64,000 nucleotides of DNA, taken from assembly GCA_964432765.1 (NCBI GenBank), contig CAYSOT010000002.1, positions 38,220 to 102,219 on the forward strand, read 5' to 3'. The DNA comes from an uncultured Candidatus Saccharibacteria bacterium (GTDB lineage: Bacteria; Patescibacteriota; SICC01; CAYSOT01). Below the pieces are notes generated by a model, which did not search any database, had not been told where the DNA came from, and saw only the letters and a list, made by a program, of their open reading frames with translations. Positions 8,198-59,976 of the stretch are shown here, piece by piece (positions within the stretch are counted from its first letter, which is position 1; every line of letters starts with the position of its first letter). A program made the translations under genes and the position numbers.

Positions 8198-9214
8198 ATG
8201 CCAGATTCTTACATTCTTGCCCTAGAAACGTCATGTGACGAAACGTCTGCGGCAGTCGTTGCCGAAAACGGTAAAGTTCTCAGCAATATCGTGTCATCAC
8301 AAATTGATGTACACCGGGCTACGGGGGGTGTGGTGCCGGAGGTAGCGTCACGATTGCAGCTTGAGATGGTCATTCCAGTTATTGACCAAGCGCTTTCTGA
8401 AGCGAAAATTACAAAAGCCTCGATTACTAAAGTAGCCGTTACAAGCGGACCAGGCCTCATCGGGCCGCTACTTGTAGGCACCCAAACCGCGGCTGCTATC
8501 GCGAGCGCTCTTGGCGTTCCGCTGCTACCTATAAACCACCTCGCTGGCCATGTTTATGCATGCCTCTATGGCAAGCGATTTTCGTTTCCCTATCTAGCAC
8601 TCGTCGTTTCTGGTAGTCATACCGAGCTAGTTAGGATGGATGATCATCATTCATTTCACATTCTCGGCTCGACTCGAGACGATGCAGCTGGGGAAGCTTT
8701 TGACAAAGTTGCGAGACTGCTTGGCATGGACTATCCAGGCGGCCCCAAGATCGCTGCGGCCGCAAAGCAGGGCAGAGCCGATGCTTACAAATTTCCCCGC
8801 GCGATGCTTAATCAAGACAACCTTGATTTCTCCTTTTCAGGTTTAAAGTCTGCTGTACGGCGGGAAGTTCTTGGCGCGAACCTTACAGAATCAATATGTG
8901 CAGATATCGCCGCCTCGTTTCAAGAAGCTGTGGTGGATGTTCTGGTTGAGAAAGCTATGCGAGCAGCTAGCCAGATGGAACCCACCGCGATTTTGCTTGG
9001 GGGTGGAGTTGCTGCAAACCAAAGACTGAGAGAGCGTTTACAAAACACGTGTGAAGCTCGAGGTCTTCCGCTCTACTGTGCGCCGCTTGAGCTGGCCACA
9101 GATAACGCAGGGATGATTGGATTAGCCGCTTTGTTTAGCGAGGTTTCCGTCTCGCCTTTTGAGATCGAAGCCGATCCTTCACGTTCGATCGATGCCGGCG
9201 CGGCAAGAGGATAA
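8198..9214 (+). CDS. tsaD: tRNA N6-adenosine threonylcarbamoyltransferase TsaD.
   Basis: N-terminal ILALETSCDETSAAVV and the HLAGH metal-binding motif, the canonical Kae1/TsaD signature. Length is 338 aa. Confidence 0.9.
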   Translation: MPDSYILALETSCDETSAAVVAENGKVLSNIVSSQIDVHRATGGVVPEVASRLQLEMVIPVIDQALSEAKITKASITKVAVTSGPGLIGPLLVGTQTAAAIASALGVPLLPINHLAGHVYACLYGKRFSFPYLALVVSGSHTELVRMDDHHSFHILGSTRDDAAGEAFDKVARLLGMDYPGGPKIAAAAKQGRADAYKFPRAMLNQDNLDFSFSGLKSAVRREVLGANLTESICADIAASFQEAVVDVLVEKAMRAASQMEPTAILLGGGVAANQRLRERLQNTCEARGLPLYCAPLELATDNAGMIGLAALFSEVSVSPFEIEADPSRSIDAGAARG

Positions 9215-11153
9215 CAACAAAACAAGCCAGTATCGCAAGCAGTGAGATTACATTTGGGATTGCCAAATACCACGGTGGTCGGTAGGAAATCTCTAGCTTC
9301 GAAACCTCCCCTGGTGCACTTAGCTGTAGAGTCGCGAGACTCGATTCTCGAGTTGCCAAACTGCGGCCGTCAGCCTTAGCACGTAACCACGGATGGTATG
9401 AAATTGCCAAGGACTGGTCACTTGTCATGATTGTTCCCTTTGGAAATTCGATGACATATTTATTTGGCGTGTATGCGGCACTAAGCGGTACATATCCCGC
9501 CGAGAAACCAAATGGCTGTACACTCTCTCCGAGATCGAAGATGGCAAACTGCTTTCCGGAAAATACCGGGGAGAGGTCCGGCATGTACGCGAGTTCATTA
9601 GCGGTACGTGGATTCGTCGTAACTATGTAGCGCACGCCTCGCTGGCGGAGTTGGGGTAGCTGTTCGCGCAGATACAGTGTCTGCGTAAGCGCTGACGCTG
9701 TTGTCACAGGCCCTTCTGCCGCCTTAGTCCCCTCGGGAAAATTTCCATCAAGATCCCAAATATTTTCATTTAGTAACGGTAAGCGCTGGTTTGCAAAATG
9801 AGGACTACCAAGCGGTATCCGACTATCCCAGTTGAATTCACTCAAAATAAACTCGCCGGGTCGCATATTTTCTTGCAAAAAGTTATTAACCTCGCGGATC
9901 TCACCTGTCAGGGAGTTGTCGGGCACAACACGAACAAATCCCCGCTTTTCATCGAGCGTTGGAAATACCACCAAGAACAGCAGAGAGACTACGGCAGCGG
10001 TGTAGACCGGAGCAACAACGCCAAAACTTGCATAGCGACGGGCGATCACCCAGATTTCGTAGATCCCGTAGGCCGCCAAGATCATCATTAGCCAAGCGAA
10101 GAAGGCATGGAAACGAATAAATTGCGAAGATGCAACTACCGATGAAAACGGGAGTGCGGCATTGATGATATTTAAGGAAAGCAGCAGGGAGAACAGCAGC
10201 GTTCCGGCGAAGAACCCAAAAAGACGCCACTTGCGATGCAATGCCATCGATCCTAGTCCGATGAGAGCGAGTAGCGAAATCGTTATTCCGCCGAAGTCTT
10301 CAGCAAGCACGAGCCCTTTCAATAGTTCGCCAAATGACTGCTGCTGAAGAGAACCGGTTGCCCCCCGGAAGCTTTCAGTCATTAATAATGGTGCCCACCA
10401 GTACGCGGAAACGGCAAGTGCTATCAAAACGATTGTCAGATATCTTTTTATGATTCGTGATGGGTTTTGATTGGCTATAGCGTGGCTTGCCAGCAGGGTA
10501 AGCGAGGCGAGCGCCCACCAGTACGCGGAAAAGGTATGGCTTAGGATGAGGCCGCCCGAAATAAGGCCCGTCATGATCAATTGCCGTCTACCACGATCCG
10601 GATCGTCTAGCTCTCGCTGCATCCGACCAAGGGCCCAGATGGCCATGATGAAACCTAGACCATTTGGCAAAAGCCCGACACCATACAATGCGCCAAGACC
10701 AAGCCCAAACGATGCGTTTAGAGCCAGCAGCAAGGTCGTACCGAGAGCAGCGAAGAAGCGAGGGAGCTTAAAACTTCTCAGAAAATAGTAGGTGACTGGT
10801 ACAAGTCCAATCCACAGCGCTGCCGTGAATATCCTCAGTGCGAGTTCCGCTGGAAATACGAGCGTCAGTGGTCCGAGCAAGTAATAAAGAAGCGGCGGGT
10901 AAAACTGAAACAGCTCAAAACCGCCGTGCCAATTCGGAAACCAGCCGTTTAACAGCCCGCTTGGCAACAATGTGTGGGCAAAAAAGTATGCTTTCAGTAG
11001 GTGCCCGCCTGCATCCCAGCCAGCAAGAAAGCCACTATTTGAAAGGGACGGCCAAATCGCCGCCAGCATTACACCGATCGTTCCACCAAGAATGGCATAT
11101 GCCGAAACCTGTTCCTGGAATCGACGATTTCTTAACTGGCTCATTAAACGCAT
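9135..11153 (-). CDS. Large polytopic membrane protein. The many-TM N-terminal half, extracytoplasmic domain and C-terminal anchor TM resemble a GT-C/YfhO-like architecture.
   Basis: Roughly 670 aa with many hydrophobic helices at the N-terminus (GWDAGGHLLKAYFF..., GWFPNWHGGFELFQFYPP). A soluble domain follows, then a final TM and a basic tail. The ORF track start (11201) overlaps the valS start. The internal Met at MRLMSQLRNRRF (11153) is more plausible. The 3' end overlaps the tsaD 3' end convergently by 80 nt. Confidence 0.55.
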   Translation of the reverse strand: MRLMSQLRNRRFQEQVSAYAILGGTIGVMLAAIWPSLSNSGFLAGWDAGGHLLKAYFFAHTLLPSGLLNGWFPNWHGGFELFQFYPPLLYYLLGPLTLVFPAELALRIFTAALWIGLVPVTYYFLRSFKLPRFFAALGTTLLLALNASFGLGLGALYGVGLLPNGLGFIMAIWALGRMQRELDDPDRGRRQLIMTGLISGGLILSHTFSAYWWALASLTLLASHAIANQNPSRIIKRYLTIVLIALAVSAYWWAPLLMTESFRGATGSLQQQSFGELLKGLVLAEDFGGITISLLALIGLGSMALHRKWRLFGFFAGTLLFSLLLSLNIINAALPFSSVVASSQFIRFHAFFAWLMMILAAYGIYEIWVIARRYASFGVVAPVYTAAVVSLLFLVVFPTLDEKRGFVRVVPDNSLTGEIREVNNFLQENMRPGEFILSEFNWDSRIPLGSPHFANQRLPLLNENIWDLDGNFPEGTKAAEGPVTTASALTQTLYLREQLPQLRQRGVRYIVTTNPRTANELAYMPDLSPVFSGKQFAIFDLGESVQPFGFSAGYVPLSAAYTPNKYVIEFPKGTIMTSDQSLAISYHPWLRAKADGRSLATRESSLATLQLSAPGEVSKLEISYRPPWYLAIPNVISLLAILACFVVILLPRRHRSNVKDRLRSQKARRKPR

Positions 11154-11194
11154 GCTCCCAGCATACCAAGCGGTAACTCCCAAGCCGCGATACA

Positions 11195-13816
11195 ATGACA
11201 AACGTGAAAGAGCTACCTAAAGCATATGATCCAATAGCGACTGAAGAAGCCGTCTATAGGCGCTGGGAAGATGCAAACTCTTTCAAGCCACTGACCGACC
11301 GGGATCCTAGTCTGGCGGCGAGCACACAGCCATACACCATCATCATGCCGCCGCCGAACGCTACCGGCAGACTTCACACTGGTCACGCAATTATGGTTGC
11401 AATCGAAGACGCACTGATTCGTTATCACCGCATGCGAGGTGACGATACGCTTTATCTGCCTGGCACTGACCACGCCGCGATTGCGACGAGCAGTGTGGTT
11501 GACCGTCAACTTGCCCAGGAAGGCATAGACAAACATGACCTCGGCAAAGAAGAGTTTGCGAAGCGCGCGAAGGCATTTGCGCTCGATAATAAGGCGTATA
11601 TAGAAGATCAACTTCGGGCGCTCGGTGCTTCGGCTGATTGGAGTCGTAATGCGTTCACGATGGACGAGAAGCGGGAAGAAGCCGTCAGAACTGCATTTCA
11701 TCGGCTCTATGAAAAGGGTCTAATCTACCGTGGCTCGTACATGGTTAATTGGTGTCCAACATGTCGAACGGTACTCGCTGACGACGAGGTTGAGCATACC
11801 GAACAAGAAGGTGTCCTTTATTACATGAAGTATGGTCCGTTCGAACTTGCGACAACGAGACCCGAAACGAAAGTTGGCGATACGGCGGTCGCAGTACATC
11901 CAGACGATACGCGTTATACGAAATATGTTGGCAAAGAAATCACAGTTAAAACGATTAACGGTGATCGTGAGTTGCGCGTGGTAGCAGACGAAATGGTCGA
12001 TCCTGAATTCGGAACGGGCGTCGTCAAGATCACTCCCTTCCATGATCAAAATGACTATGAGGTTTCAAAAAGGCATCACCTTGAAGCTATCGAGGTAATT
12101 GGAGAAGACGGCAAAATGACCGAGGCTGCAGGGCCCGACCTTGCCGGCCTGGATCGATTCGAAGCGCGCAGCAAGATGGTTGCCTGGCTCAAAGAAAACG
12201 ATCTTCTAATTCGGGAGGAGCTTCACCACAATTCGGTCGGACGCTGCTACCGCAGTGATGATGTCATCGAACCGCGAATTTCAAAGCAGTGGTTCTTGGC
12301 AGTTTCAAAATTGAAAAAGCCGGCACTTGAATTTGTTGATTCCGGGCAGCTTTCATTTGTGCCAAAACGTTTTGAAAAAACATACCGCGCCTGGATTGAG
12401 AATTTGTACGACTGGTGCATTTCACGCCAAGTATGGTTTGGGCATCCACTACCGGTGTACCTAAAGGGCGATGAGGTTTCACTCGAGCCAAAGGATGGAT
12501 TTACCGCATCAACAGATACTCTCGATACCTGGTTTTCATCTGCCCTGTGGCCATTCTCCACTATGGGCTGGCCAGACACCGACGCCCCTGATTTCAAACG
12601 ATTCTTCCCGGGTGATGTGCTCGAAACTGGCTACGACATCATTCCATTTTGGGTTTCTCGAATGATCTTGATGACGATCGCGCTTGATGTACGCAGCGCC
12701 AAAGAAGGTTCACTGCAACCGCCTTTCCATACCACCTACCTCCACGGACTCGTGCGAGATAAGCGGGGGCGCAAGTTTTCGAAGTCGCTTGGCAACGGGG
12801 TGGATCCGCTTGAACTGATTGGAAAATACGGGGCTGATTCACTCAGGTTCATGTTGGCAACCTCAGCATCGCCCGGGAACGACTTAAAGTTCGATGAGGA
12901 CCGTGTGGTTGCAGCACGTAACTTTGCCAATAAGCTCTGGAATATTGCTCGCTTCTGCATCGCTCAAGAGCTGCCACAAGAACCACTTACGAAGCTTCCC
13001 GAAGAAGCTCTAACAGCAATGGACAAGGGAATTCTCTCCAAGCTTGCGCACATCGTTAAACAAACCACAAAACACCTCGAGGAACATCAGCTGGGCTTGG
13101 CTGGCAACGGACTCTACGACTTTATTTGGTCGGACTTTGCTGACTGGTACGTCGAAGCCGCCAAAGTGCAGCTTCGAAATGAAGACACGGCACACTCCAC
13201 GAAAATTATCCTTAGAAACGTGCTTGAGACTGTTCTAAAACTACTTCACCCCTTTATGCCCTTTGTAAGTGAAACCATTTGGTCTGAAGGGCTTGGGCAA
13301 AAAGAAATGCTTATCCTCACCAAGTGGCCAGAAGAAACAAAAGAGTATGATGCCGCTAACTACGAGCTCGTTAAGGGCGTCATCGAGACTATTCGCAGTC
13401 TGCGAGCAGAAAAGCGCGTCGAGGCAGCCGCCTGGATTCAAGCTCACCTTGTGACAGAGAATCCGGAAGTTTTGTTAGATTCTGCCGATGTAATTAATGC
13501 GCTCGGTCGTATTAAAATACTCAAGGTGTCGATGGATCTTCCAGATACCAGCGAGGCGGTAACCGCGGTCCACGGACCAGTTACGGTTATTCTGCCTATG
13601 GCTGGTCTGCTTGATACTTCCAAAGAGGCTGACCGTTTACAGAAAGAGCTTGAGCGCGCCACAATGGAAGTTGAGCGACTACAAGGTCGACTCGACAACA
13701 AGCAGTATGTCAGCAAAGCTCCAGCCAGCGTCGTCGCCGAAACGAAGGAAAAGCTTGCCTCCGCCAAGGAGGAAAGGCAAACAATCGAAGAGCAGCTCGC
13801 GCGCCTTACACGCTAA
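11195..13816 (+). CDS. valS: Valyl-tRNA synthetase.
   Basis: 873 aa with the HIGH-class motif PNATGRLHTGHA, KMSKS-class KFSKSLGNG, and a C-terminal coiled coil typical of ValS. Confidence 0.95.
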   Translation: MTNVKELPKAYDPIATEEAVYRRWEDANSFKPLTDRDPSLAASTQPYTIIMPPPNATGRLHTGHAIMVAIEDALIRYHRMRGDDTLYLPGTDHAAIATSSVVDRQLAQEGIDKHDLGKEEFAKRAKAFALDNKAYIEDQLRALGASADWSRNAFTMDEKREEAVRTAFHRLYEKGLIYRGSYMVNWCPTCRTVLADDEVEHTEQEGVLYYMKYGPFELATTRPETKVGDTAVAVHPDDTRYTKYVGKEITVKTINGDRELRVVADEMVDPEFGTGVVKITPFHDQNDYEVSKRHHLEAIEVIGEDGKMTEAAGPDLAGLDRFEARSKMVAWLKENDLLIREELHHNSVGRCYRSDDVIEPRISKQWFLAVSKLKKPALEFVDSGQLSFVPKRFEKTYRAWIENLYDWCISRQVWFGHPLPVYLKGDEVSLEPKDGFTASTDTLDTWFSSALWPFSTMGWPDTDAPDFKRFFPGDVLETGYDIIPFWVSRMILMTIALDVRSAKEGSLQPPFHTTYLHGLVRDKRGRKFSKSLGNGVDPLELIGKYGADSLRFMLATSASPGNDLKFDEDRVVAARNFANKLWNIARFCIAQELPQEPLTKLPEEALTAMDKGILSKLAHIVKQTTKHLEEHQLGLAGNGLYDFIWSDFADWYVEAAKVQLRNEDTAHSTKIILRNVLETVLKLLHPFMPFVSETIWSEGLGQKEMLILTKWPEETKEYDAANYELVKGVIETIRSLRAEKRVEAAAWIQAHLVTENPEVLLDSADVINALGRIKILKVSMDLPDTSEAVTAVHGPVTVILPMAGLLDTSKEADRLQKELERATMEVERLQGRLDNKQYVSKAPASVVAETKEKLASAKEERQTIEEQLARLTR

Positions 13817-14810
13817 GCGCAGAGGATTAGTTTGGTTAGTGATCGCAGTAGGTCTGCTAATTCTATGTGTCGGCGCGTGGTTTGCCAGTGAGCCGATTCG
13901 TGAAAGCAAAGCATCGCAGTTTGATCGTGATGTCGCTTCCGCACTTTCTCAAAAAAACTATGCGCTTGCTGCTTCGCGCGCACATTATGCCTCAGTGCTT
14001 AGATCGTCGTCGGAGCGGAAACTTACCGAGGCCGCAACGTCGTTCCTTAATGAAGACTACAAAACATCGAGCAAACAGTTCTCGAATATACCTGGCAACG
14101 TCGGGGCAATCGGGCAGCTAGCCGCAGAGACGCGTGGCAAAATGCGGATAAGCAGCCTAGATGCAAATTCCTTAACTGGTGAGGAGCGTGTTGTTGCCAG
14201 CGCGCTCGCGCTCGATCGTGGTGATGTAGAGGAGCTGCGAACAATGCTCACAGGGCTAGCTATCGAGAATGATACAATCGCCGTTCTTGCAGCCTCCGCA
14301 ACTATGGTAGACGATCCAAGCAGGGCAGCTGCAGTGCTGGCTGCGTCACCTGGTGGTATCACGAGAATCAGCTCAAATATGCCTGCTTTCGCGACCATGC
14401 TTAATTCGATACTTGAGCAGTCGGGAGAGTCAATGAAAGCTTATTCTGCCAGATCGGCCGATGCGCAGCGTTCAAATTCAGAACCTTCTCGCTATCTATT
14501 CTTGACTGATGCGCTCTATCGGTCGGGTAAGTACTACAGTGCGGTGGCAATGAGCGAAAAAACCATGAGCCTGGCTCCAAACTCTAGAGATGCATACGTC
14601 GCGCAGGCACTAGGGCTTGCAGCACTCGGCAATCAGAAAGCAGCGAAGCGCTCAATTGAGACTGCACTAGAGATAGACCCTTCGTACGGCTATGCCTGGT
14701 TTATCAAAGGCAGAATCTTAGAGGCGCTTGGAGACACAAAAGGCTCAGCTACATCACAGCAGAACTCTGAGCGCTTTCTCTATACCCCCGCCCCGGAGCC
14801 GACTATATAA
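13806..14810 (+). CDS. Membrane-anchored TPR-like repeat protein.
   Basis: The ORF-track ORF (13611..14810) begins inside valS in another frame. That upstream part is probably not translated. A plausible start is the TTG at 13806 (or TTG 13827/13836 or GTG 13839) just before the signal-anchor KRRGLVWLVIAVGLLILCVGAWF. The C-terminal part has TPR-like helices (DPSYGYAWFIKGRILEALGD). Confidence 0.5.
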   Translation, partial: LHAKRRGLVWLVIAVGLLILCVGAWFASEPIRESKASQFDRDVASALSQKNYALAASRAHYASVLRSSSERKLTEAATSFLNEDYKTSSKQFSNIPGNVGAIGQLAAETRGKMRISSLDANSLTGEERVVASALALDRGDVEELRTMLTGLAIENDTIAVLAASATMVDDPSRAAAVLAASPGGITRISSNMPAFATMLNSILEQSGESMKAYSARSADAQRSNSEPSRYLFLTDALYRSGKYYSAVAMSEKTMSLAPNSRDAYVAQALGLAALGNQKAAKRSIETALEIDPSYGYAWFIKGRILEALGDTKGSATSQQNSERFLYTPAPEPTI

Positions 14811-16278
14811 ATGCGAACAAGGTACTACGCAGCCCCGGATCGCTCCCGGGTGAATATGCATTAAATACCGACTTAAAAGTTGGTCCCGAAACAGTTTTCG
14901 TACCATCTGATCCGATGATTTGCAGTGACGTCACCCTACCCCCAACACCGCGGCCAACAATCTTGATGGTTTGCAGTTGCCCAACGTTCGTTCGGCTGTC
15001 CCGGCTGATGATTGCCTGCATTTGCTCACGACTATAGACAGCCGTACGCCACTCCCAGTGCGGCGAATCAGTCTCCCAAGGCGAAGATGCCCCACGCAAC
15101 CATGGCAGTGGCGTACCACCCCATACATTCTCATTGTTTTCCGTATAACCACCGGACGTTGAATGGAAATAGGCTGGTATGACCTGACCGGCATAGGCCA
15201 GTACCTGCCCGCGTGTTTCTGCAACCGCCCTTCTAGCATTGGCTGTCTGCAGCGACGGCCCAACCCAAGCCTGGGTGCGCGGTGAGTTATCTAGACGACT
15301 GCGGTTGATGTATGCATAGGAACGCGCTGCAACCGCCTGGGCCTTTAATGCTTCCATTGGCCAGTTCGAATTCATTTCCGCTTCAACAACGCCGACAAGA
15401 TATGTCTCCAGGTCTCCCCCGACGTTGACTTGAGGGTTATCACCAATAGTGATTATCGATGTGGCTAGATAATAGTGGCTGAGAATATCCCGATAGTTCT
15501 TGCCTTGCTGAGCCATCCCTTTGGCTCCGTACTGGCTCATCCCTAAACCGTGCTCTGTTCCACCGCCGATAAATGCAAAGCGACCACCGATTGGTTCATT
15601 ATTATTGATCCAGACTCGATTATTTCTGTTGTAATTGCCCGTTAGTCCAGCGAGCGCTGCCTCTAGTGCATTTGCGGCATCCTGATTCGCAGCATTCTCG
15701 GCGAGTTGACGTTGTAAGTCAGAGATTCGTCGTTGCAGGTCGGCAATCTGCGTTTCGATTCCGTTTTGGACTGTCACGACATCACGGCGCTCTTTATCTA
15801 GCTTCTGCAAATTCGCATCGACGTCTTCGAGAATTGAAACTCTTTTCGAAACCATAAACTGCGCGTATTGCCCTCGGCTAAGAAACTCTGTCAGGCTACC
15901 GCTTCCGACTAGTGCTCCGATCAGCGAGTCATTATCGCCTGCGATATACGAAGCAGTCATAAACTGATCCCGCTGTTTCTTCAGAGCGTTCATGCGCTTA
16001 GTTATGTCGTCGACCTTTGCTTTGCTTGCTGCAACCAAACTTTGCTGCTTAGCAAGTTGTGCTTGGAACGCTTGAATGCCTTCACTGGAAGCGCCTAGCT
16101 GCTGCTGTAAATCCCCCGCTTGTGAGGCAAAAATAGTTTGCTGGGTACGAATATCATCAAGCTGCTTAAGCAATGCGTCATCCGACTCAGTCCTCCCGCT
16201 GGATGGAAAAAGGGAGCATGCCAATACTACGCTTAGAAACGCTGAAATTGTCCTTCTAGATGCTCTGCTAAATATCAC
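14803..16278 (-). CDS. Exported protein with an N-terminal coiled-coil domain and a C-terminal SpoIID/LytB domain.
   Basis: Signal peptide, then about 200 aa of heptad-rich coiled coil, then EHGLGMSQYGAKGMAQ. The last matches the SpoIID/LytB GHGVGMSQ(Y/W)GA signature. Confidence 0.75.
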   Translation of the reverse strand: MIFSRASRRTISAFLSVVLACSLFPSSGRTESDDALLKQLDDIRTQQTIFASQAGDLQQQLGASSEGIQAFQAQLAKQQSLVAASKAKVDDITKRMNALKKQRDQFMTASYIAGDNDSLIGALVGSGSLTEFLSRGQYAQFMVSKRVSILEDVDANLQKLDKERRDVVTVQNGIETQIADLQRRISDLQRQLAENAANQDAANALEAALAGLTGNYNRNNRVWINNNEPIGGRFAFIGGGTEHGLGMSQYGAKGMAQQGKNYRDILSHYYLATSIITIGDNPQVNVGGDLETYLVGVVEAEMNSNWPMEALKAQAVAARSYAYINRSRLDNSPRTQAWVGPSLQTANARRAVAETRGQVLAYAGQVIPAYFHSTSGGYTENNENVWGGTPLPWLRGASSPWETDSPHWEWRTAVYSREQMQAIISRDSRTNVGQLQTIKIVGRGVGGRVTSLQIIGSDGTKTVSGPTFKSVFNAYSPGSDPGLRSTLFAFI

Positions 16279-18244
16279 GCGCGACTCGCCAGACTTCTTC
16301 GATGGTCGTTACACCGGTCAAGGCCTTAATTAATCCATCGGCCTCCATCGTCATCATACCGTCCTTCTTGGCAGCTTCAGTGATATCCGAAACTGGGGCA
16401 TGCGCTATCGCCAAGCGTTCAATTTCGTCGCTCGGCACAAGTACTTCATAAATTCCGATCCGTCCGCGGTAGCCCGTGTTGTTGCACTTGGCGCAACCTG
16501 AGCCAAGCAAATATAGCCATTCTTTCTCTGGGGGTAGCGAATCAAGCGCCTTTGGCTCTTCCTTGAGCCGTGCCCGGACTTCGGAAATTACCTCTGGTTC
16601 TGGCTTCACTTCAGATGCACACTCACTACAAACCTTGCGCACGAGTCGCTGCGCAATAACGACGTTCACGGCGTTTGATAGCAAGAATGGTCGCACTCCA
16701 AGATCAATCAGGCGGGGAATCGCCGTCGGGGCATCGTTGGTGTGAAGCGTCGAAAGAACGATATGCCCAGTCAGTGATGCTTGGGTTGCCATCTCGGCGG
16801 TCAGTTGGTCGCGTATCTCACCAACCATCACAATATCTGGGTCGAGTCGCAAAACAGACCTGAAGCCTTCGCCGAAGTCATAGCCTTCATCCGGTTTTAT
16901 TTGTGACTGCATAATTCCTTCCATACGATATTCGACCGGGTCTTCAAGTGTGATTATTTTCTTGCCTGGGTCATTAAGCATGGCGAGCAAGGCGTACAAC
17001 GTTGTCGTCTTACCAGAACCGGTTGGCCCGGACTCGAGCACTAACCCTTGTGGTCGTTTGATCGCTTCGAGCACCTTAGTAAGAGGTTCGCCGGTGAGTC
17101 CGAGAGAATCTATCGATATACTCAAGTTTCCCCGGTCGAGAAGCCTCATTGTAATCGCCTCACCATACTGAACCGGTACCGTGGCCACGCGGATATCAAG
17201 TTCATGTGGCTTATTGTCATACGTATCATTAATCGTAAAACGACCGTCTTGTGGAAGCTTGGCGACATCCAGCTTCAGCTTCGCCAAAAACTTCAGTCGC
17301 GACATAATCGAATTCGTTACATTTGGTGGGAGTTTCACCACATCCTGCAGGACGCCATCGAGTCGATAGCGTATCTTCACTCCATCCTGCACAGGTTCGA
17401 TATGGACATCCGATGCGCCAACAGACACGGCTCCCGTCAGCAAGAGATCAATGAGCTTCGTAGTCGGCACATTCTGGATCTTGTTTTTTAAATCAACCAG
17501 ATTGCGAATTTCCTCGCTGAACTCCTTTTTCGACTCACGCGCCACCGTAACATCGGAAGCTTCTGCTCGTTCGGCAGGTATTTCATCGTAAAGCTTGATG
17601 GCATACTCGTATGAATCGTCGCCGATTACCGATACGAGAAAGTCGAATCCTGTTGCATCGCGTAGCTCTTGGACACGATTGAGTGCTTCTTTGTTGTTTG
17701 GGTTCGTAATACCAAGACGAACTTTCTTACCCGCTTTTAGATAGGAAATAACCCCATTATTCTTAGCCAAATCACGAGGCACGATCGTCAGCACTTCCGG
17801 CGATATTGGATATCCAAGAATCCGCGCAAATGGCAAGTTGGCACGTTTAGCTAGTTCGCGACGCTCCTGCTCGGCAGCCTCGATCTTGAGCCGATCAACC
17901 ACTTTTCCAACGTCGACCCTGGCAAACATGTCGACATCTATATCGTTGTCGTGCTCTGCCTCAACTTGTAGCGGAGCAGCGTCAGGGTCTATGACTGAAG
18001 GCGTTACGTCCCCCAGTTTTTTGGACTGCTCTTGTCTGCTCTGTCGCAAACTGGCTGTCACTTCTTGTGTCTGAATATCGTTAGTGACTGGCGTAGCCAT
18101 ATCTGCACCCGCCGTATCTGTCGGGTTTTGGGCAGACGCTGGAGTCGGCGCAAAGTTAGCGCCGCTTCGCATATCTTTTTGAACGAAGTCTTGGAGCTTA
18201 GCTTGCTCCATAGGTGTCATCTTGTTGAAAAAATCTCGTGCCAT
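16268..18244 (-). CDS. pilB: Type IV pilus / type II secretion assembly ATPase (PilB/GspE family).
   Basis: Walker A SGPTGSGKTTT, Asp box, and His box LSTLHTNDAP. The tetracysteine motif CSECASE...CAKCNNTGYRGR is present. Long GspE-N-type N-terminal domains. Confidence 0.9.
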   Translation of the reverse strand: MARDFFNKMTPMEQAKLQDFVQKDMRSGANFAPTPASAQNPTDTAGADMATPVTNDIQTQEVTASLRQSRQEQSKKLGDVTPSVIDPDAAPLQVEAEHDNDIDVDMFARVDVGKVVDRLKIEAAEQERRELAKRANLPFARILGYPISPEVLTIVPRDLAKNNGVISYLKAGKKVRLGITNPNNKEALNRVQELRDATGFDFLVSVIGDDSYEYAIKLYDEIPAERAEASDVTVARESKKEFSEEIRNLVDLKNKIQNVPTTKLIDLLLTGAVSVGASDVHIEPVQDGVKIRYRLDGVLQDVVKLPPNVTNSIMSRLKFLAKLKLDVAKLPQDGRFTINDTYDNKPHELDIRVATVPVQYGEAITMRLLDRGNLSISIDSLGLTGEPLTKVLEAIKRPQGLVLESGPTGSGKTTTLYALLAMLNDPGKKIITLEDPVEYRMEGIMQSQIKPDEGYDFGEGFRSVLRLDPDIVMVGEIRDQLTAEMATQASLTGHIVLSTLHTNDAPTAIPRLIDLGVRPFLLSNAVNVVIAQRLVRKVCSECASEVKPEPEVISEVRARLKEEPKALDSLPPEKEWLYLLGSGCAKCNNTGYRGRIGIYEVLVPSDEIERLAIAHAPVSDITEAAKKDGMMTMEADGLIKALTGVTTIEEVWRVARDI

Positions 18245-18342
18245 AGGCGTCGTGTCTTTGTCTGTAAATTACGAAACCATACCATTTTTTGACCCAACTG
18301 TCAAGAACTAAGGGTTCAGTATGGCACGCTGTGTAGTCTGTC

Positions 18343-19392
18343 TCAAGATGTAGCGTGGGCAAGCACAACGTCGCCAAGCTGCCTGCGAACGCCGTTGATT
18401 GCATCGCGACTGTTTGGCCGGTGTGGATGCACATGATTTGAAAGCAAAACCCATCCGACTTGTTGCTTTGGCCAAACAACCAATGAACATCCGGTAAATC
18501 CTGTTTTGCCAAAAACCCCAGATGGAATACCCGTAGCCATCCAAGAGCGCTCTAGCTCGAAACCAAACGTTACCCTATCTTCGACCTCAGGAACCTGATC
18601 TTCGCTCAGGAGTGCGATTGTGGAGGGCTTAAGTATTGCCACGTTATTAAACGAACCGTCATGCACAAGCGCTTCAACTGGACGCAACATATCACGCACA
18701 CACGAAAAGAGTCCTGCGTGGCCAGTAGTCTCACCATCGGCAGATAAAGTTCGGGCGCTTTCGTCGTGTACGATGCCATGAAGTGCCCGATCGCCCACTA
18801 TTTCGGTCGGTGCAATTTCTGCTAGTTCTGCAATTGTCGCGGCATGAAAAGACGTTCGCGACATTCCAAGGGGTTTAAATAGTTTTTTGTCTGCGAGTGT
18901 ATCCAGCGGCTCTCCTGCCAAACGCTGGATAACACGTCCGAGCAGATAGGCAGGAAAGTTCGTATAAAGATACTCACTGCCAGGAATACCGCGCAGGGGT
19001 TCGCTCAGGATGCGCTTTCGCAGCGCCTTTGCATCAGAAGCGTATTTTGAGAACGGAAAACCAATCACGGTATAGGTCAAGAGGTGACGAATTTTAATAT
19101 CTGCACCACCCGGGGCCACATATTCCGGAAGGTACTGGGGCACCGACTCATCAAGCGCAAGCTTGCCCGCCTCAATAAGCTGCAAGGCCAATAGCGCAAT
19201 CGGTACAGACTTTGTCAGGGAAGCTACATCGTAAACGGTTTCCGGCTGCACAAGGGGAGCGTTCTCCTCATACGTTATCGCTCCAGCTGTAATGAATGAG
19301 GTTTTTCCGTCACAAATGATACCAACCGCCGCGCCAGGAAACACCTTGGCACTTATTGCGTTGTTTAAAATTGATGCGATTTCGGCGTTCAC
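18343..19392 (-). CDS. Serine hydrolase, beta-lactamase/PBP4* family.
   Basis: SLTKS (SxxK) active-site motif near the N-terminus and a beta-lactamase-fold layout. Length is 349 aa. Confidence 0.7.
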   Translation of the reverse strand: MNAEIASILNNAISAKVFPGAAVGIICDGKTSFITAGAITYEENAPLVQPETVYDVASLTKSVPIALLALQLIEAGKLALDESVPQYLPEYVAPGGADIKIRHLLTYTVIGFPFSKYASDAKALRKRILSEPLRGIPGSEYLYTNFPAYLLGRVIQRLAGEPLDTLADKKLFKPLGMSRTSFHAATIAELAEIAPTEIVGDRALHGIVHDESARTLSADGETTGHAGLFSCVRDMLRPVEALVHDGSFNNVAILKPSTIALLSEDQVPEVEDRVTFGFELERSWMATGIPSGVFGKTGFTGCSLVVWPKQQVGWVLLSNHVHPHRPNSRDAINGVRRQLGDVVLAHATS

Positions 19393-20684: not shown

Positions 20685-22478
20685 ATGGTTCGTCATATGT
20701 CGAACCAGCCAAGTGAAAATCCTAGGAGTATCGGACACGCGGATGCTGAAATCAAAGCAGCTGTGTCTTTGCCCGAAGAAGAGCAGCGAATCGATCTCGC
20801 ACTGGTTTCTCGCTATGGCGAAGGTGATTTTGCAGCCCTAGAAGTGCTTGCCGAGCGCTACCAAGAGCTTCTAAAGGGCGCTTATCCGGCCATAACTACC
20901 GATGAGGTTCCGCCACAATTTGTGCTTTTTGAGCAAGCTGCCAGGACATACCGCGAAAAGATGGGAATCCCATTCTCTGAATGGGCCCAGCGGGTAGTGA
21001 CGCGCGAAGGAGTAAGTCCTGATACAAACGAACTACCAACCGACGAGGTAAAAAGCCTTGTGGCTGAGCTTGCAGATGTTAATGGGAAACAGAAAATACG
21101 GTATGTGCTGGCTACGCCCCTCGCCGACAAGTTAGCCGCCATGGAGCAAGAGATCATGTGGCGGCCGTATTTTGCGGAAAAACTTCAGGGGCAAGATTGG
21201 TATCAGACTGCGAGCGATTCAGTACAGCGTTCGGCACTGCGTCAGTTTGTACTACGACTTGGTGAAATTAGCCGTATGAGCGCTGTACATCAACCTGACG
21301 GCAAAGTTACCCCGATGCGCACGTTTGATACGACTACAATGGGTCTTGTTTGTGATCAGCTTTTTGAAATTGAGCTGCCAACAATCCAGAAAGAGGCTCT
21401 TGAGAAACCGAGTAATTCTAGACAAAAAGCCTCTTCGACAGCTGTAGAAAAGGGCACTTCGCACGAGCCTGCCTCGATACTCGAAGGAGAAATTCCCGCC
21501 TTAACCCGCAGCGGCGAGAAAATCAAAGAAAAGCTCGCTCAGGTATTGCCCACTATGATTGGTATGTATCAGGAAGGGGGCAATAAGCCGTCCATACACG
21601 ATCTTTTGCGAGTTGATGGCCGGGCACAATACCAGTTTGCCCATCTGGGCATTCTTGAAGCACTTCGGGACTTTGGTGTCTTCTCAGAGAACGAGCTCGC
21701 TGAGCTTTCGGGCAGAAGCACAGGAGATGACGTTGCTAGAGACATAGAGCTTTTTCGAAGGTCCACCGGACACGACGAACGAACGCGTTTCCTGCACTCT
21801 TTTAATTACGAACGCTTGAAGGAGCTTATCGAAGCGGCTTCGCCCGAGCATACAAGGGAGCTGCTTGAGCGATACGGTCAGAAGTACGCGAAAGAACGTC
21901 CCGAACCGTCAATACAAACGATCATATCGCGCAGGAGAGAGCTCGAGCGCAAAGCTCGACGCTCTAAGGGCAAACCAAAAAGAAAGCGGTCAGCGCGCAA
22001 GATGCCACTGCCTGAAGACGAGCCGCTCACAACGATAATCGAGGTTTCTCCTGAATCGCAGCGCTATGCGGAGGTATTTTTGTCGCTCGTCGACGCAGGC
22101 CTTCGATCAACACAGGGACACCCCTCCAATATCGAGAAGGAGGTCATTGCCAATGAGCTTACGCCGCTTCTGGATAGAGTAGTCGGCGTCGAATCCGATT
22201 TAGAAAACGCCCTTGAGAAATCGTTAATACGGACTGCCAGAAAAGAGGTCTCAAAATTCGTCAGGCTCGCTATCCGCATCGAGACATCAATCAACTCGGA
22301 GCTTGCGGCCGCACGGGAAGCGCTTCCGAGTAATTTTACTGGGCTCAGCGAGCCACAGAGACTTCAAGTCTACCGGCTTTTCATACGACACGTTGGACAA
22401 AATATGCGTCGCAGTCCGATTTCGCAACTTGAGCGTCGACAATTTTTTGACGGTGTCGAAAAGCGACTTGCTGCCTAG
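20685..22478 (+). CDS. Large hypothetical protein of 597 aa.
   Basis: Complete ORF 18 nt downstream of the sigma factor. The N-terminus (LALVSRYGEGDFAALEVLAERYQELLKG) is reminiscent of sigma region 2.1, but nothing else is recognisable. There is a basic KRKRSARK patch. Confidence 0.6.
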   Translation: MVRHMSNQPSENPRSIGHADAEIKAAVSLPEEEQRIDLALVSRYGEGDFAALEVLAERYQELLKGAYPAITTDEVPPQFVLFEQAARTYREKMGIPFSEWAQRVVTREGVSPDTNELPTDEVKSLVAELADVNGKQKIRYVLATPLADKLAAMEQEIMWRPYFAEKLQGQDWYQTASDSVQRSALRQFVLRLGEISRMSAVHQPDGKVTPMRTFDTTTMGLVCDQLFEIELPTIQKEALEKPSNSRQKASSTAVEKGTSHEPASILEGEIPALTRSGEKIKEKLAQVLPTMIGMYQEGGNKPSIHDLLRVDGRAQYQFAHLGILEALRDFGVFSENELAELSGRSTGDDVARDIELFRRSTGHDERTRFLHSFNYERLKELIEAASPEHTRELLERYGQKYAKERPEPSIQTIISRRRELERKARRSKGKPKRKRSARKMPLPEDEPLTTIIEVSPESQRYAEVFLSLVDAGLRSTQGHPSNIEKEVIANELTPLLDRVVGVESDLENALEKSLIRTARKEVSKFVRLAIRIETSINSELAAAREALPSNFTGLSEPQRLQVYRLFIRHVGQNMRRSPISQLERRQFFDGVEKRLAA

Positions 22479-26261: not shown

Positions 26262-26334
26262 GCGCCTGTAGCTCAGTGGATAGAGCGTCGGCTTGCGGAG
26301 CCGGAAGTCGAAGGTTCGAATCCTTCCAGGCGCG
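26262..26334 (+). tRNA. tRNA-Arg (anticodon GCG).
   Basis: GCGCCTGTAGCTCAGTGGATAGAGCGTCGGCTTGCGGAGCCGGAAGTCGAAGGTTCGAATCCTTCCAGGCGCG. The cloverleaf folds cleanly. The anticodon loop UUGCGGA puts G-C-G at positions 34-36. Confidence 0.8.
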
Positions 26335-26378
26335 CAGTACCTACCCTGAAGCAGTCGTGGCTGCGACCCCATAATTAC

Positions 26379-26451
26379 GTCCTCGTAGCTCAGTGGATAG
26401 AGCACTGGCTTCCGGAGCCAGGTGTCGGGGGTTCGAATCCCTCCGAGGACG
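26379..26451 (+). tRNA. tRNA-Arg (anticodon CCG).
   Basis: GTCCTCGTAGCTCAGTGGATAGAGCACTGGCTTCCGGAGCCAGGTGTCGGGGGTTCGAATCCCTCCGAGGACG. The anticodon loop UUCCGGA gives anticodon CCG. Confidence 0.85.
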
Positions 26452-26497
26452 CATGAATAGTGTTTAGCACGGTGCGCAGCTCGGCTATACTTGTGCC

Positions 26498-27249: not shown

Positions 27250-30200
27250 ATGGATACGGAACTTACAGGCTGGGTAGAAAGTGCGCCGGAGGCGACTGAA
27301 GCGATTGTCGATCGGGCCGTCAGGTCGCATTTGCTTGAACATCCAGAATATCTACTACCACTCTGTTTCGAGTTTGAAGAATACGAAACCTACGGTGCGC
27401 TCGATGCGCTCGATATTTCAGCCCATGATCTGGCTAGGCTACCTCTTGGAGTTACGATTGAAAGAATTCCCGGGACAAACCAGCAGAGACTCTTCCGAAC
27501 AGAGCCCGAACATCACGATATGCGGTTGTGGGCTGAAGATGGTGTAGACATTCCAAATCGCGCATCAGCAGTTGACCTTCTTGCGATCCAATACCTTCTT
27601 GATACAACAAGGCCTTCGGGCAAACCGGGACATTTCGACTACACTCCAAACACCGTTCCGGGCGGTTTAGCTAAACCGCGTGAAGTCACAGAAAAAGACA
27701 TCCAAGAGATTTTTAATATTGCCAAAGAGGCACTCTTTGAAGTTGGCTACTCGCTTAATAAGTACGGCAGGCCTTTAATTGAAGAGGCTCAGAATCTGCG
27801 TGACCAAAGACATCCGGAGCTAGCAGGTTCAATTACGTTCCACGAGGAGCTTCTAGAGTTGCTCGAAAAGGGAGGGATTTTAGCGAGGAAGGTCGTCTAT
27901 GGCAAGCCGATCAAATTTGCCATCGACATAGTAACAACAGAACCACAGCGTGTGGCTGCGCTCGTGGATGAGCATCGCGTACACGGCGATCCAGTACTCG
28001 ACTTTACGGGATTCATTAAGAAATCTGTATCCAAAGATCCCGAATTTCAGCAGCATATTCTAGAACCGACAGAGCCTGGACTCGCGCTTGATCTTGATAT
28101 GACCTACTCACCACTCTTTCAGCGCCACATAACCCATGAGTCGTTTGGGAGAGTCACACCGCGAGAGTTGTATGCCGCAGCAGAATGGGCGATCGGCGAC
28201 CAGCTCGCAAAAGCAGCTCTTAGCAAGACCCCCGAATGGGCCGAGGTGCTAGCAAGAGAAAAACCTCTCTTTTATACCCACGACGGTATCAGGTTTGACG
28301 CTAGCCGAGTTGCCCTTGCCTTCTTCACAGTCGGTGCGGAAAAAACCGTCGAACTCCTCGTAGCCGCGGAAGATCGAGAAATTATGCTCGATGGAATTCA
28401 TGAGATGGTACGCCTTGGTAAAGACGCTGTGCTCCGTGAAGCTGGCCTCGAGCAGGCGTCAGAAATTTACCGTGCTGGTCTCATTAAGCGAAGCGGACTA
28501 GATGGTGCTGTTAGGTTTCTTTGGTTCAGCATGACCCGAGTTACGAAATTCCCCCACACTCCTTTTACCGAAGAGCATATTCGGCTTGAGAGGGAACAAG
28601 CAAAGGAGGAGCAGCGCAGGCGCCAACCCAAACTTTACATCGATAATGAGTTAGTTCATCTGCGCTGCGTGCAGATTTTTGAACGGGCCAAGCGCATTTA
28701 TGATATTAATCCGAGCATCTTCCCGAACCTTGGCTCCACAGACACGTTTGAGCAATATCTAACGCGGCAGATACTCTACCCCACGTCGCAAGATAGTCGA
28801 AAGCTTGAGTGGCTTGTTTTTGATGTCGATGTACCCCGAGTTGATGAGGAAACTATCTGTCGCGTTTTAGCTGAAAACGCCCACGTTGTAACCGAATTAC
28901 TTGAGCGAAGGATTTCTGAAAGCGTGTTGGAAGATGGCCTAAGCGAAGAGCGACGCGCTGCGATTCTGCATGACTTTGAGGTCCAGTTTGGTCCAGAGAT
29001 GCGGCAAGAAGCTCAAGCGCTGGTGGTCGACTTAGTAGAAGGGAACGATCTAGTCCTTGCGTTTGAGGGTTTAAAGCAGGCTGCTTTCGTTACGGAACTT
29101 TTTCGAGCAGCGGCTGATAATATCCAGATACCGCGGGAGCGTTTGCTAAAACGGCTCATTGAGAAATCAGCAGAAGTGTATGGAATTGACGCGACCGAGA
29201 TCGAATCGGCCATAACCCCGCAAGAGCTGTTATTCTATTTTGAACACGCGGAGCGCATCAGCGCACTGCGACACTCAACCACTCTGCCAGAGACAGCAGG
29301 ATGGCGAACGGCGAGCAAACCTCGTCCAATCAAAACTCCAGCCGATGAAATATGCTCGTTTGAAGATCTTCACCGAGCGAGACACCTTACTCACCAAACA
29401 GAGCTGGGCCAAGCCTACTACGTAGCAGCTGCACTGTTGCTCGGCCGAAAGACTATCGACAGCTTCTTGTCTCCATCCAGAAAGCGTCTCGGTTTAGTTA
29501 ACGGCGGCCACTATGAAGAGGTCTTGGGCTGGGTAGACTATGCAGTAAAGCTTTCTCCCGAAAACTTGACCGCTGTTCTCGAATCAATTGACTCGGATGT
29601 TGAACAGTTCGAACTTTCTATATATCTGACAAAATATGAACCTGAAAATGATCAACTAGCACAGCGTGGTCCGATTCGCTCGATTCGAGAGCTCAAAGTC
29701 CGCGTCGAGGCTCTAGGGAGAGACTTTTCAGCAATCAAGGACAGGCGCGCCTGGGATGTACTTTCTAAAACACCGGGTATGGACTTCGCAGCGCTCGAGG
29801 AAATGTGCGGACAGAGGGAATTCCACGAGCTGCTCCGTGGAGACTTCGACGCATTCCAACCCTTTTCATCATTCGAGGTGCTGGTTGCTCCAAAGCACGA
29901 TGTAGCAACAATCGTACAAACGTCGCTTGGGTCTAGAAAAAACAATACTCCAGGAACGGCCGCCGACCCGGCAAAGCTTTATCATGACCTCAAACACCTT
30001 ATGAAACGCCGTGGCGTCACTGGATCCCCTGCGGATTTATTTGAATCGGTTCCAAAACAGATAGAAGCAGAAGTGCTCGAGCTTGTACGAGGGCAGGATT
30101 CATACCAAGAAGAGTCAACCGGGCCACTCTACAGGGCAACGCTTCACGACAAATCAGATCCTCTTGGTTGGGTTTGTGGAAATTACACCGATTGCTGCAT

Positions 30201-47433: not shown

Positions 47434-47451
47434 ACATCCATTCTAACCAAT

Positions 47452-49663: not shown

Positions 49664-49674
49664 ATAGTCCTATT

Positions 49675-55885: not shown

Positions 55886-55904
55886 CGTCTTAATTGTTTC
55901 AGGA

Positions 55905-57766: not shown

Positions 57767-57767
57767 T

Positions 57768-58502: not shown

Positions 58503-58520
58503 GTATTTTATGGTACCACG

Positions 58521-59959: not shown

Positions 59960-59976
59960 GATACTAGACTAGCATG

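Follow-up and report, generated by a model that had tools for sequence, protein, structure and literature searches.

PcsB of S. pneumoniae, CwlO of B. subtilis, RipC of M. tuberculosis and EnvC of E. coli, V. cholerae and P. aeruginosa are built on one plan, in which a signal peptide is followed by a coiled-coil hairpin with a conserved tip, a linker and a peptidoglycan domain. The protein described here has the same plan and shares with them a match to CC_PcsB at the family level. The peptidoglycan domain of the known proteins is a CHAP or NlpC/P60 peptidase/amidase or a degenerate LytM domain, whereas here it is a SpoIID/LytB domain of the lytic transglycosylase type. To our knowledge every characterised FtsEX client acts on peptide bonds by cutting or unmasking them; PcsB, CwlO and RipC do so directly, EnvC via amidases. 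In the solved complexes two FtsX extracellular domains grip the coiled coil (PMC10694151, PMC11627006), and a review of FtsEX names no client that cleaves glycans (PMC11627006). An N-terminal coiled coil of the same type regulates the C-terminal hydrolase RipA of Corynebacteriales and mycobacteria via a membrane complex; RipA is an NlpC/P60 endopeptidase, in place of the SpoIID domain found here, and it works with SteAB rather than FtsEX (PMC12977500). Thus, a PcsB-type module alone does not identify FtsEX.

SpoIID of Bacillus and Clostridioides (4rwr, 5i1t, 5txu) and the proteins of TIGR02669 belong to the same catalytic family as the domain described here, with the Glu and the motifs HGxGMSQ and HSTSGG in common. 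The solved SpoIID proteins have the canonical segment order, a membrane anchor and the partners SpoIIM and SpoIIP, whereas here the order is permuted, the N-terminus is a coiled coil that is predicted to be secreted, and the host is a CPR bacterium not known to sporulate. A SpoIID homolog reportedly acts at the division septum of the non-sporulating Waddlia (Chlamydiales; Jacquier et al. 2019, cited in PMC13104611). The likeness lies in a SpoIID-type lytic transglycosylase for division and in a reduced genome with few other glycan-cleaving enzymes, and lineage and envelope type differ between Waddlia and Saccharimonadia. We know of no PcsB-type coiled coil on the Waddlia homolog. The combination of a PcsB-type coiled coil with SpoIID has not been described before; literature searches returned nothing relevant on such a fusion or on SpoIID in Patescibacteria.

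The gene lies in a window of 64 kb, the whole stretch of DNA that was analysed. The ORF list of the window contains an ORF of 491 amino acids with a GTG start on the minus strand at 14803..16278, exactly where the first-pass annotation had placed it, and the two peptides quoted there were located at residues 110-140 (SYIAGDNDSLIGALVGSGSLTEFLSRGQYAQ) and 244-252 (GLGMSQYGA). The protein consists of a predicted signal peptide, a two-helix coiled-coil hairpin of about 180 amino acids and a SpoIID/LytB domain. About 36 full-length homolog clusters with 37-89% identity retain this architecture, which argues that the protein is real and under selection. The features of the locus are:

14803..16278, minus strand: whole gene of the putatively secreted coiled-coil-SpoIID/LytB protein, stop codon at 14803-14805 (ORF and conserved full-length family)
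16192..16278, minus strand: predicted signal peptide, residues 1-29 (direct reading of the sequence and alignment A1)
15964..16185, minus strand: coiled-coil arm 1, helix alpha-1, residues 32-105 (AlphaFold models)
15859..15963, minus strand: hairpin tip, residues 106-140, FMTASYIAGDNDSLIGALVGSGSLTEFLSRGQYAQ (CC_PcsB match and conservation)
15646..15858, minus strand: coiled-coil arm 2, helix alpha-2, residues 141-211, antiparallel to arm 1
15586..15645, minus strand: flexible linker, residues 212-231 (low pLDDT at 207-213 and low conservation)
15433..15585, minus strand: segment that is C-terminal in canonical SpoIID, residues 232-282 (aligned to 4rwr, 5i1t and P0098)
14806..15432, minus strand: main SpoIID/LytB catalytic body, residues 283-491 (TIGR02669 and PF08486 matches)
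16268..18244, minus strand: gene for a PilB/GspE-class assembly ATPase of 658 amino acids with an MshEN-like N-domain and T2SSE (Pfam T2SSE 1e-114)
18276..18304, minus strand: promoter-like site shortly before the ATPase gene (TTGACA, 17 nt, TG, TATGGT)

Residues 1-29 begin with SRASRRT, a basic n-region, and continue into a hydrophobic core; in family members this region closes with a Pro and an AxA-like motif (alignment A1). They would act as a signal peptide. Anchoring as a lipoprotein via the Cys of VLAC was also considered, but is unsupported because this Cys varies across the family alignment.

The protein is a member of the SpoIID/LytB family, since profile HMMs score it far over the curated cut-offs (TIGR02669, 211.5 bits against 83.3; PF08486, 78 bits against 23). 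The earlier description of a C-terminal SpoIID/LytB catalytic unit was therefore right about the family; it is, however, not a plain C-terminal domain but a permuted one. The sporulation SpoIID equivalog TIGR02870 scored 162.9 bits, below its cut-off of 234.75, and we know of no sporulation in the host lineage, Saccharimonadia/Patescibacteria. The catalytic body (283-491) holds the motif YLVGVVEAEM, E301 (codon 15376-15378) and the motif HSTSGGYTENNENVWG. E301 is invariant in all 36 aligned family sequences. In the alignment its counterpart in C. difficile SpoIID is E101, which lies in the GEM motif of 5i1t and is the catalytic residue of that enzyme (PMC6221140). The motifs HGLGxSQ and HSTSGGxTE are likewise invariant in the 36 sequences, and the GTEHGLGMSQYGAKG motif in residues 232-282, where HGLGMSQ is encoded at 15532-15552, is nearly so. 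Since 36/36 sequences keep both the catalytic Glu and the substrate-groove motifs, lytic transglycosylase activity has probably been retained, and action on denuded glycans is expected. A Foldseek search with the full-length model returned coiled-coil matches only, with no SpoIID chain among the top 50.

In canonical SpoIID the catalytic Glu is followed by HSTSGG and then by GHGxGMSQ, whereas here HGxGMSQ comes first, followed by the catalytic Glu and HSTSGG. Residues 232-282 align to 276-326 of the solved SpoIID chains 4rwr and 5i1t and to 453-495 of P0098, a homolog with canonical order, and residues 283-491 align to 65-273 of solved SpoIID. The native sequence matches 4rwr, 5i1t and P0098 out of order, whereas the de-permuted sequence aligns collinearly with an E-value of 8e-58. 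The peptide GLGMSQYGA, which had been quoted for the catalytic unit, falls in the permuted segment, which is first here and C-terminal in canonical SpoIID. We had considered the permutation a peculiarity of this fusion, but the permuted order is common to 81 of the 82 scorable matches (about 125 were examined), which come from many phyla and in some cases carry no coiled coil. A large SpoIID subclade has this permuted order, a topological variant still within the SpoIID/LytB family. Literature searches on circular permutation of SpoIID returned nothing relevant. Such a permuted set in non-sporulating phyla matters for annotation and modelling, since PF08486 spans only about 90 residues and masks the permutation.

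A bipartite coiled coil at the N-terminus had been proposed in the first-pass annotation, and AlphaFold indeed predicts a pair of long helices running antiparallel, 32-114 and 129-211, with a short tip between them; in the models the first arm appears as helix 2-87 in the coiled-coil construct and as helices 32-61 and 66-114 in the full-length protein. This two-helix hairpin resembles those of EnvC, RipC, PcsB and RipA, and as in these it is the N-terminal part of a protein that starts like a signal peptide and ends in a peptidoglycan-active domain. The tip is the best-conserved stretch of the coiled coil. Conservation reaches 0.74/0.68 in residues 121-140 compared to 0.42-0.6 in the arms, with a mean majority frequency of 0.49 for arm 1 in the family alignment. 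In the tip, Y111 and A122 are invariant, and L123, S126, L129, F132 and Y138 are at least 90% conserved.

The specific resemblance to EnvC and PcsB, which had also been claimed, withstood comparison at the level of the family, although the score of the protein itself is below threshold. The Pfam family CC_PcsB (PF24568) matches residues 90-161 with model positions 6-73 of 75, scoring 22.0 bits for the full protein and 24.4 bits for the coiled coil alone, both under the gathering threshold of 27. CC_PcsB is matched by 10 of 23 family members with E<0.01, and the family member P0030 carries a precomputed PF24568 match. A profile of the family coiled coil found 521 proteins at E<1e-3 among 1.84 billion representatives, and 89 of the 115 that were examined match CC_PcsB, with a best E-value of 6.5e-18. 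In a Foldseek comparison with 350,542 chains the best two matches were RipC in FtsEX/RipC; the coiled-coil model superposes best on EnvC and RipC in FtsEX complexes, and RipA (6ewy, 9hmx) and also 8auc are among the best structural matches. The E-values of these structural comparisons are weak, with generic helical hairpins scattered among the specific matches. When PDB sequences were searched with the profile, PcsB, EnvC and RipC were not recovered; the sole related match was 8aud with an E-value of 0.033, besides generic coiled coils, and structure comparison and the large-scale profile search took the place of this search. The coiled coil is homologous to the PcsB-type regulatory module.

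The fusion is rare. It was found in 7 of 185,579 species genomes in a scan run with the full-length alignment, the coiled-coil alignment by itself having no sufficiently conserved stretch of 7-10 columns. The survey of relatives that the first-pass annotation had suggested therefore did recover the same fusion, both here and in the homolog clusters mentioned above. Its carriers are a small set of ultra-small CPR bacteria in the Saccharimonadia, with longer forms in other CPR lineages. Near-complete genomes with the fusion include GCA_025449535.1 (contig JANWJF010000001.1, 810 kb), JBBDXB010000006.1 (639 kb) and JGI Ga0272434_1000002 (607 kb). These long-form proteins have 565-640 amino acids (P0040-P0060, P0123, P0124, P0161). 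They are found with the same coiled-coil profile (E 1e-17 to 1e-7), show the permuted SpoIID order and are encoded in the same syntenic slot beside a TPR gene, ValRS, TsaD and FemAB. Unlike the short form, they contain an extra 130 amino acids or so between the HGxGMSQ segment and the catalytic Glu, an insert for which no Pfam family was matched, and upstream of their genes the gene for the PilB-type ATPase is missing.

Taken as a whole, the protein might be a secreted SpoIID/LytB enzyme that cleaves glycan strands and is gated by a hairpin of the PcsB/EnvC/RipC type, most likely driven by FtsEX; we give this reading a probability of about 0.5. The conserved tip (106-140), the putative docking site for a membrane partner, would dock on a membrane mechanotransmitter, most likely FtsEX, by way of the partner's extracellular domains. 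At rest the coiled coil would be autoinhibitory, keeping the SpoIID domain inactive or off the wall, and an ATP-driven motion of the membrane partner would free or reposition it. The freed domain could then cut glycan strands whose peptides an amidase has already removed, and it may additionally stimulate that amidase. The setting would be septum splitting or wall remodelling in the reduced-genome Saccharimonadia. The constant place of the gene next to genes for wall synthesis, FemAB and a Mur ligase, fits such a role, as does the septal SpoIID homolog of Waddlia.

For FtsEX itself as the membrane partner the balance of the evidence is about even. Published MAG surveys found FtsEX in most Saccharimonadia, with 59 bins of that class reported to have FtsX and 57 to have FtsE (PMC12592800). 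Among the closest coiled-coil relatives without SpoIID is P0127, a CC_PcsB-M23 protein encoded directly 3' of ftsX. With the FtsX from that locus, which is of Oscillospiraceae origin, as query, 120/120 among the matches listed were Firmicutes-like. A scan with an FtsX HMM and an ABC ATPase motif, in which the positive control L012 was detected at an E-value of 5e-137, found no ftsE, ftsX or ABC ATPase in the window, nor within 10 kb in 17 related loci. Many CC_PcsB hydrolases are encoded beside ftsEX, unlike the coiled-coil-SpoIID gene; among FtsEX-controlled hydrolases such linkage is common, though not a requirement.

Saccharimonadia have tiny genomes and few wall hydrolases. If the SpoIID fusion is a true FtsEX client, it would extend FtsEX control to the cleavage of glycan strands and would hint at how Saccharimonadia split the septum. 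The practical value of this hinges on experiments that have newly become feasible in cultivable Saccharibacteria.

It might also be that the partner is a membrane complex other than FtsEX, SteAB-like or specific to the lineage, or that the coiled coil is a rigid spacer or oligomerisation stalk that sets the distance between SpoIID and the membrane. We consider this unlikely, though it is the strongest of the alternatives. RipA, a top structural match, is under SteAB control (PMC12977500), ftsEX is near none of the loci examined, and the coiled-coil arms are poorly conserved. However, what is conserved is the tip and not the arms, and the tip has the CC_PcsB signature of FtsEX clients. A pure spacer is disfavoured because it would need no conserved tip. 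No SteA/SteB-like gene was noticed among the neighbours of the gene, in scans aimed at other genes.

A different partner is suggested by the genomic neighbourhood. The sole conserved co-oriented neighbour of the coiled-coil-SpoIID gene in the short-form sublineage is the PilB/GspE-type ATPase, not FtsE. This ATPase scores about 480 bits with TIGR02538 and TIGR02533, under both equivalog cut-offs. Its gene is adjacent upstream on the same strand in all 11 assessable short-form loci (hydrolase identity 38-89%) and in neither of the two long-form loci. In the window the final 11 nt of the ATPase gene overlap the start of the hydrolase gene, so the two are probably co-transcribed, and no terminator-like site was found between them. 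The promoter-like site upstream of the ATPase gene is a possible start of this two-gene transcript; it is only suggested as a promoter, since such sites are no commoner in the region than shuffled expectation.

Specialised lytic transglycosylases open the wall for other envelope-spanning machines. The hydrolase could thus partner the ATPase in opening the peptidoglycan locally for a type IV pilus or a secretion-like apparatus, with the coiled coil as a tether, a reading to which the gene adjacency and overlap lend some weight and which we regard as improbable. Saccharimonadia are notable for type IV pili (PMC12592800). Against this partnership, no ATPase gene accompanies the long-form orthologs, which sit in the same ValRS-TsaD-FemAB slot, and the adjacency may be mere inheritance because the whole region is syntenic throughout. 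No genes for PilC, PilM, PilN, PilO or pilins were found in the window or in the related loci, and two intervening genes at the related locus L006, considered as prepilins, encode a protein with two TM segments and a surface protein with Laminin_G_3 instead. The idea of a pilus operon was demoted to a minor alternative on these grounds. In addition, we know of no CC_PcsB module that pairs with a T2SSE ATPase, and this ATPase is cytoplasmic, with no gene for a membrane transducer beside it.

Less probable still is that the SpoIID domain chiefly activates a partner amidase, in which case the protein would be functionally analogous to EnvC. Precedents for such a role are the stimulation of SpoIIP by SpoIID in B. 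subtilis and the modifier action of LytB on the amidase LytC. SpoIID also needs prior amidase action on the peptidoglycan (PMC6221140). In contrast to the degenerate LytM domain of EnvC, however, the catalytic Glu and the groove motifs are invariant throughout the family. The roles of activator and of lytic transglycosylase are compatible with each other.

We hold it highly improbable that the pilus/type II secretion-class ATPase itself powers the coiled-coil hydrolase via a putative membrane transducer, a reading that is weakened by the lack of the ATPase in the long form and of platform or pilin genes nearby; if true, an ATPase-driven hydrolase would be a pairing of regulator and client never described and would tie pilus/secretion machinery to controlled glycan cleavage in CPR bacteria. 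That the coiled coil is a generic one whose likeness to EnvC/PcsB is a compositional artefact is effectively refuted by the coiled-coil profile search, even though many unrelated coiled-coil Pfam and PDB entries score weakly too and SMC, chemoreceptor and toxin hairpins are among the structural matches.

The PcsB-type coiled coil is a regulatory handle in wide reuse, which makes it useful as a marker for regulated autolysins in uncultured bacteria. The partner domains in the survey with the coiled-coil profile were M23 (47), NlpC/P60 (19), Hydrolase_2 (12), SpoIID (8), 3D (5) and CHAP (4).

The coiled-coil-SpoIID/LytB gene and the parts of its product are as follows:

14803-16278, minus strand: coiled-coil-SpoIID/LytB gene, ORF of 491 aa with a GTG start
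Residues 1-29: putative signal peptide, judged from a basic n-region followed by a hydrophobic core
Residues 32-211: predicted coiled coil, two long antiparallel helices with a short connecting tip
Residues 212-231: linker, poorly conserved and of low model confidence
Residues 232-491: SpoIID/LytB domain, matched by TIGR02669 and PF08486

The long bipartite coiled coil described in the first-pass annotation was recovered in the predicted models (pLDDT 79 for the coiled coil modelled alone, 77 for the full-length protein). The assignment of the C-terminal unit to SpoIID/LytB also stands, with scores well above the cut-offs (TIGR02669, 211.5 bits against 83.3; PF08486, 78 bits against 23), but the domain is circularly permuted. 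E301 aligns with the catalytic residue E101 of SpoIID from C. difficile (PMC6221140), and since E301 and the motifs HGLGxSQ and HSTSGGxTE are unchanged throughout the family, an active enzyme seems more likely than a degenerate one.

In solved SpoIID structures and in TIGR02669 the GHGxGMSQ segment is C-terminal, whereas in the target domain (14806-15585, minus strand) it precedes the catalytic body and thus the catalytic Glu. Sequence alignment with 4rwr pairs target residues 234-280 with 276-322 and residues 289-409 with 67-205. P0098, the single homolog of canonical order among the matches, likewise gives two out-of-order matches (289-490 to 200-400 and 236-278 to 453-495), which become one single match with an E-value of 8e-58 when the target is artificially de-permuted. 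The two strands on either side of the cut, LRSTLFAFI (C-terminal in the target) and RFAFIGGG…HG (at the start of its SpoIID domain), are consecutive in P0098, an order consistent with a classical circular permutation. The permutation is not a speciality of the fusion, being present in 81 of 82 scorable matches (about 125 examined; loci L020-L092). Contiguous matches over residues ~232-490 were found in Obscuribacterales/Melainabacteria, Thermoleophilaceae, Limnocylindrales, Spirochaetota, Clostridia and Anoxybacillus, and coiled-coil-free proteins of these groups show the permuted order as well. A literature search found no description of such an order for SpoIID/LytB.

The resemblance of the coiled coil to EnvC/PcsB modules, noticed at first reading, is borne out by the family profile. 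The target itself scores 22-24 bits against Pfam CC_PcsB, under the threshold of 27, over model positions 6-73 of 75 and centred on the segment quoted at that time; CC_PcsB is the commonest Pfam match among the coiled coils of the family (10 of 23 members). Decisive was a profile search in which an HMM built only from the coiled-coil region was run against 1.84 billion representative proteins. It retrieved 521 proteins at E<1e-3, and 89 of the 115 examined matched CC_PcsB (best E-value 6.5e-18). P0127 (CC_PcsB with M23), among the nearest relatives without a SpoIID domain, is encoded directly downstream of ftsX. At the level of family profiles, on which the claim rests, the coiled coil is specifically EnvC/PcsB-like. 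The structure comparison proposed earlier agrees: in a Foldseek search of 350,542 chains with the coiled-coil model, ranks 1 and 2 went to RipC in FtsEX/RipC and the next to RipA, and the full-length model additionally brought up PcsB and EnvC. With weak E-values and generic helical hairpins interspersed among these specific matches, the structural similarity lends support to the claim but does not decide it.

The examined relatives carry Peptidase_M23 (47), NlpC/P60 (19), Hydrolase_2 (12), SpoIID (8), 3D (5) or CHAP (4) domains; the PcsB-type module is evidently promiscuous in its catalytic partners. Hydrolase_2 (SleB-like; 12/115) and 3D (5/115), seen in alignment A3 of P0126-P0262, are further glycan-active or atypical partners besides the well-known M23, NlpC/P60 and CHAP fusions.

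The same fusion was indeed found in related genomes: its full-length homologs form about 36 clusters (37-89% identity), all of identical architecture. Homologs with names in the sources are SpoIID/LytB domain proteins of Patescibacteria. In a scan of 185,579 species, one genome each, the full-length fusion was present in 7 genomes only, labelled Candidatus Saccharimonadia, Candidatus Saccharibacteria, Patescibacteria group or 'bacterium'. The GC content of the window (~50%) and its genes (YidC, RnpA, FemAB, Mur ligase, PolA, and rhamnose and glycosyltransferase clusters) fit a Saccharimonadia/Patescibacteria-type genome.

We consider it probable (roughly 85%) that the target is a regulated glycan-cleaving wall enzyme. 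It would be a secreted SpoIID-type lytic transglycosylase gated via its PcsB-type coiled coil. If PcsB, CwlO, RipC and EnvC are a guide, the conserved tip would bind a mechanotransmitter in the membrane, with FtsEX the likeliest candidate; ATP-driven movement of the partner would then free or reposition the catalytic domain (PMC11627006). The tip (residues 121-140) is the best-conserved part of the coiled coil (majority frequency ~0.7 versus 0.42-0.6 in the arms), as would be expected of a docking surface, and in solved complexes the coiled coil is held between two FtsX extracellular domains (PMC10694151, PMC11627006). A precedent for a role in division is the chlamydial SpoIID homolog (Jacquier 2019, as cited in PMC13104611).

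That FtsEX is the regulator is, by this analogy, about an even bet. An HMM search with a positive control found no FtsX homolog in the window or in 17 family loci, and motif searches, with Pfam scans of the window, found no ORF with ABC ATPase motifs there. A MAG survey reported FtsX in 59 and FtsE in 57 Saccharimonadia bins (PMC12592800), and FtsEX genes are reported in other Patescibacteria (PMC11809585, PMC13059738); an FtsEX partner is probably present in the genome of the target. It appears unlikely that the coiled coil serves another membrane partner or acts purely as a spacer: the empty searches at these loci would suit this reading, the conserved tip would suit docking.

Coupling of the hydrolase to the adjacent ATPase is an improbable alternative suggested by gene order:

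16268-18244, minus strand: PilB/GspE-class ATPase gene, 658 aa, its last 11 nt overlapped by the GTG start of the hydrolase gene

The ATPase carries a ~130-aa low-complexity N-terminal extension and scores alike for PilB and GspE, under both equivalog cut-offs. It is kept beside the hydrolase gene in related genomes (55-59% identity), and the order ATPase, then hydrolase holds in all 11 assessable loci of this short form, the most divergent of which has two non-pilin genes between the pair. Since no platform, PilM/N/O or pilin genes were found anywhere in the 64-kb window, the ATPase looks like an orphan. The neighbourhood is syntenic throughout (TPR protein, ValRS, TsaD, FemAB, Mur ligase, PolA). 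In other CPR contigs the same slot is occupied, without an ATPase upstream, by a long form of 565-640 aa, for example:

L093:10001-11776: long-form gene
L094:10001-11698: long-form gene, flanked by conjugation/T4SS-like genes (TrbL, PrgI, TraC, VirB4-like)

The long form shares the coiled-coil profile and the permutation; in addition, ~130 aa that match no Pfam family are inserted after its HGxGMSQ segment, ahead of the catalytic Glu. Thus, the fusion arose before the ATPase gene became its neighbour, and their adjacency is most readily taken as an arrangement particular to this sublineage.

Since SpoIID enzymes require peptide-stripped glycans (PMC6221140), the glycan-cleaving enzyme we propose should act after an amidase, perhaps stimulating it; that activating an amidase is its main role is quite improbable, given the invariant catalytic residues. 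A generic coiled coil without specific relation to PcsB or EnvC, which the interspersed hairpins might suggest, is effectively refuted by the profile matches.

The component families of the target are already known. Searches of the accessible literature found no description of the SpoIID fusion, of its restriction to few Saccharimonadia lineages or of coiled-coil-gated glycan cleavage, and the client list of an FtsEX review includes no lytic transglycosylase (PMC11627006). The fusion would bring glycan cleavage under the control of a coiled-coil gate; its observation is solid, and FtsEX control is the hypothesis we put forward by analogy.

Further genes flank the hydrolase and ATPase genes. 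A convergent gene (13611-14810, plus strand) overlaps the 3' end of the hydrolase gene by 8 nt and encodes a 399-aa protein with TPR repeats in its C-terminal part and a TM segment in its N-terminal part; in relatives a shorter ORF is called (326 aa in L001), and a TPR protein is found 3' of the hydrolase in several related loci (L001, L006, L009, L094). The ATPase gene is closely preceded, on its own strand, by the gene of a serine beta-lactamase/PBP4B-like protein (18343-19392, minus strand; Pfam Beta-lactamase, 1e-50), possibly a wall DD-peptidase; as a neighbour it is shared only with the closest relative, L001, and absent from loci farther removed.

A VanW-like protein of 623 aa with PG_binding_4 domains (41777-43648, minus strand) is another wall-associated protein of the window. 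In a long same-strand cluster (43783-61284, minus strand), a complete dTDP-rhamnose pathway (RmlA, RmlB, RmlC, RmlD) is accompanied by GT4 and GT2 glycosyltransferases, methyltransferases and three Wzy_C/O-antigen-ligase-like proteins. The cluster is in keeping with a wall polysaccharide that contains rhamnose, of the kind inferred for other Patescibacteria (PMC11809585). Three ORFs of 688, 597 and 1112 aa (9135-11201, minus; 20685-22478, plus; 27250-30588, plus) have no Pfam match, and NCBIfam, run on the 688-aa ORF only, gave none either. This ORF may encode a membrane glycosyltransferase, since it is syntenic with ~670-770-aa proteins of relatives that have weak PMT, PTPS_related or DUF6541 matches. 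A tandem pair of tRNA-Arg genes (26262-26452, plus strand) has the anticodons GCG and CCG, and three tRNA-Ser genes are scattered over 22.4-31 kb.
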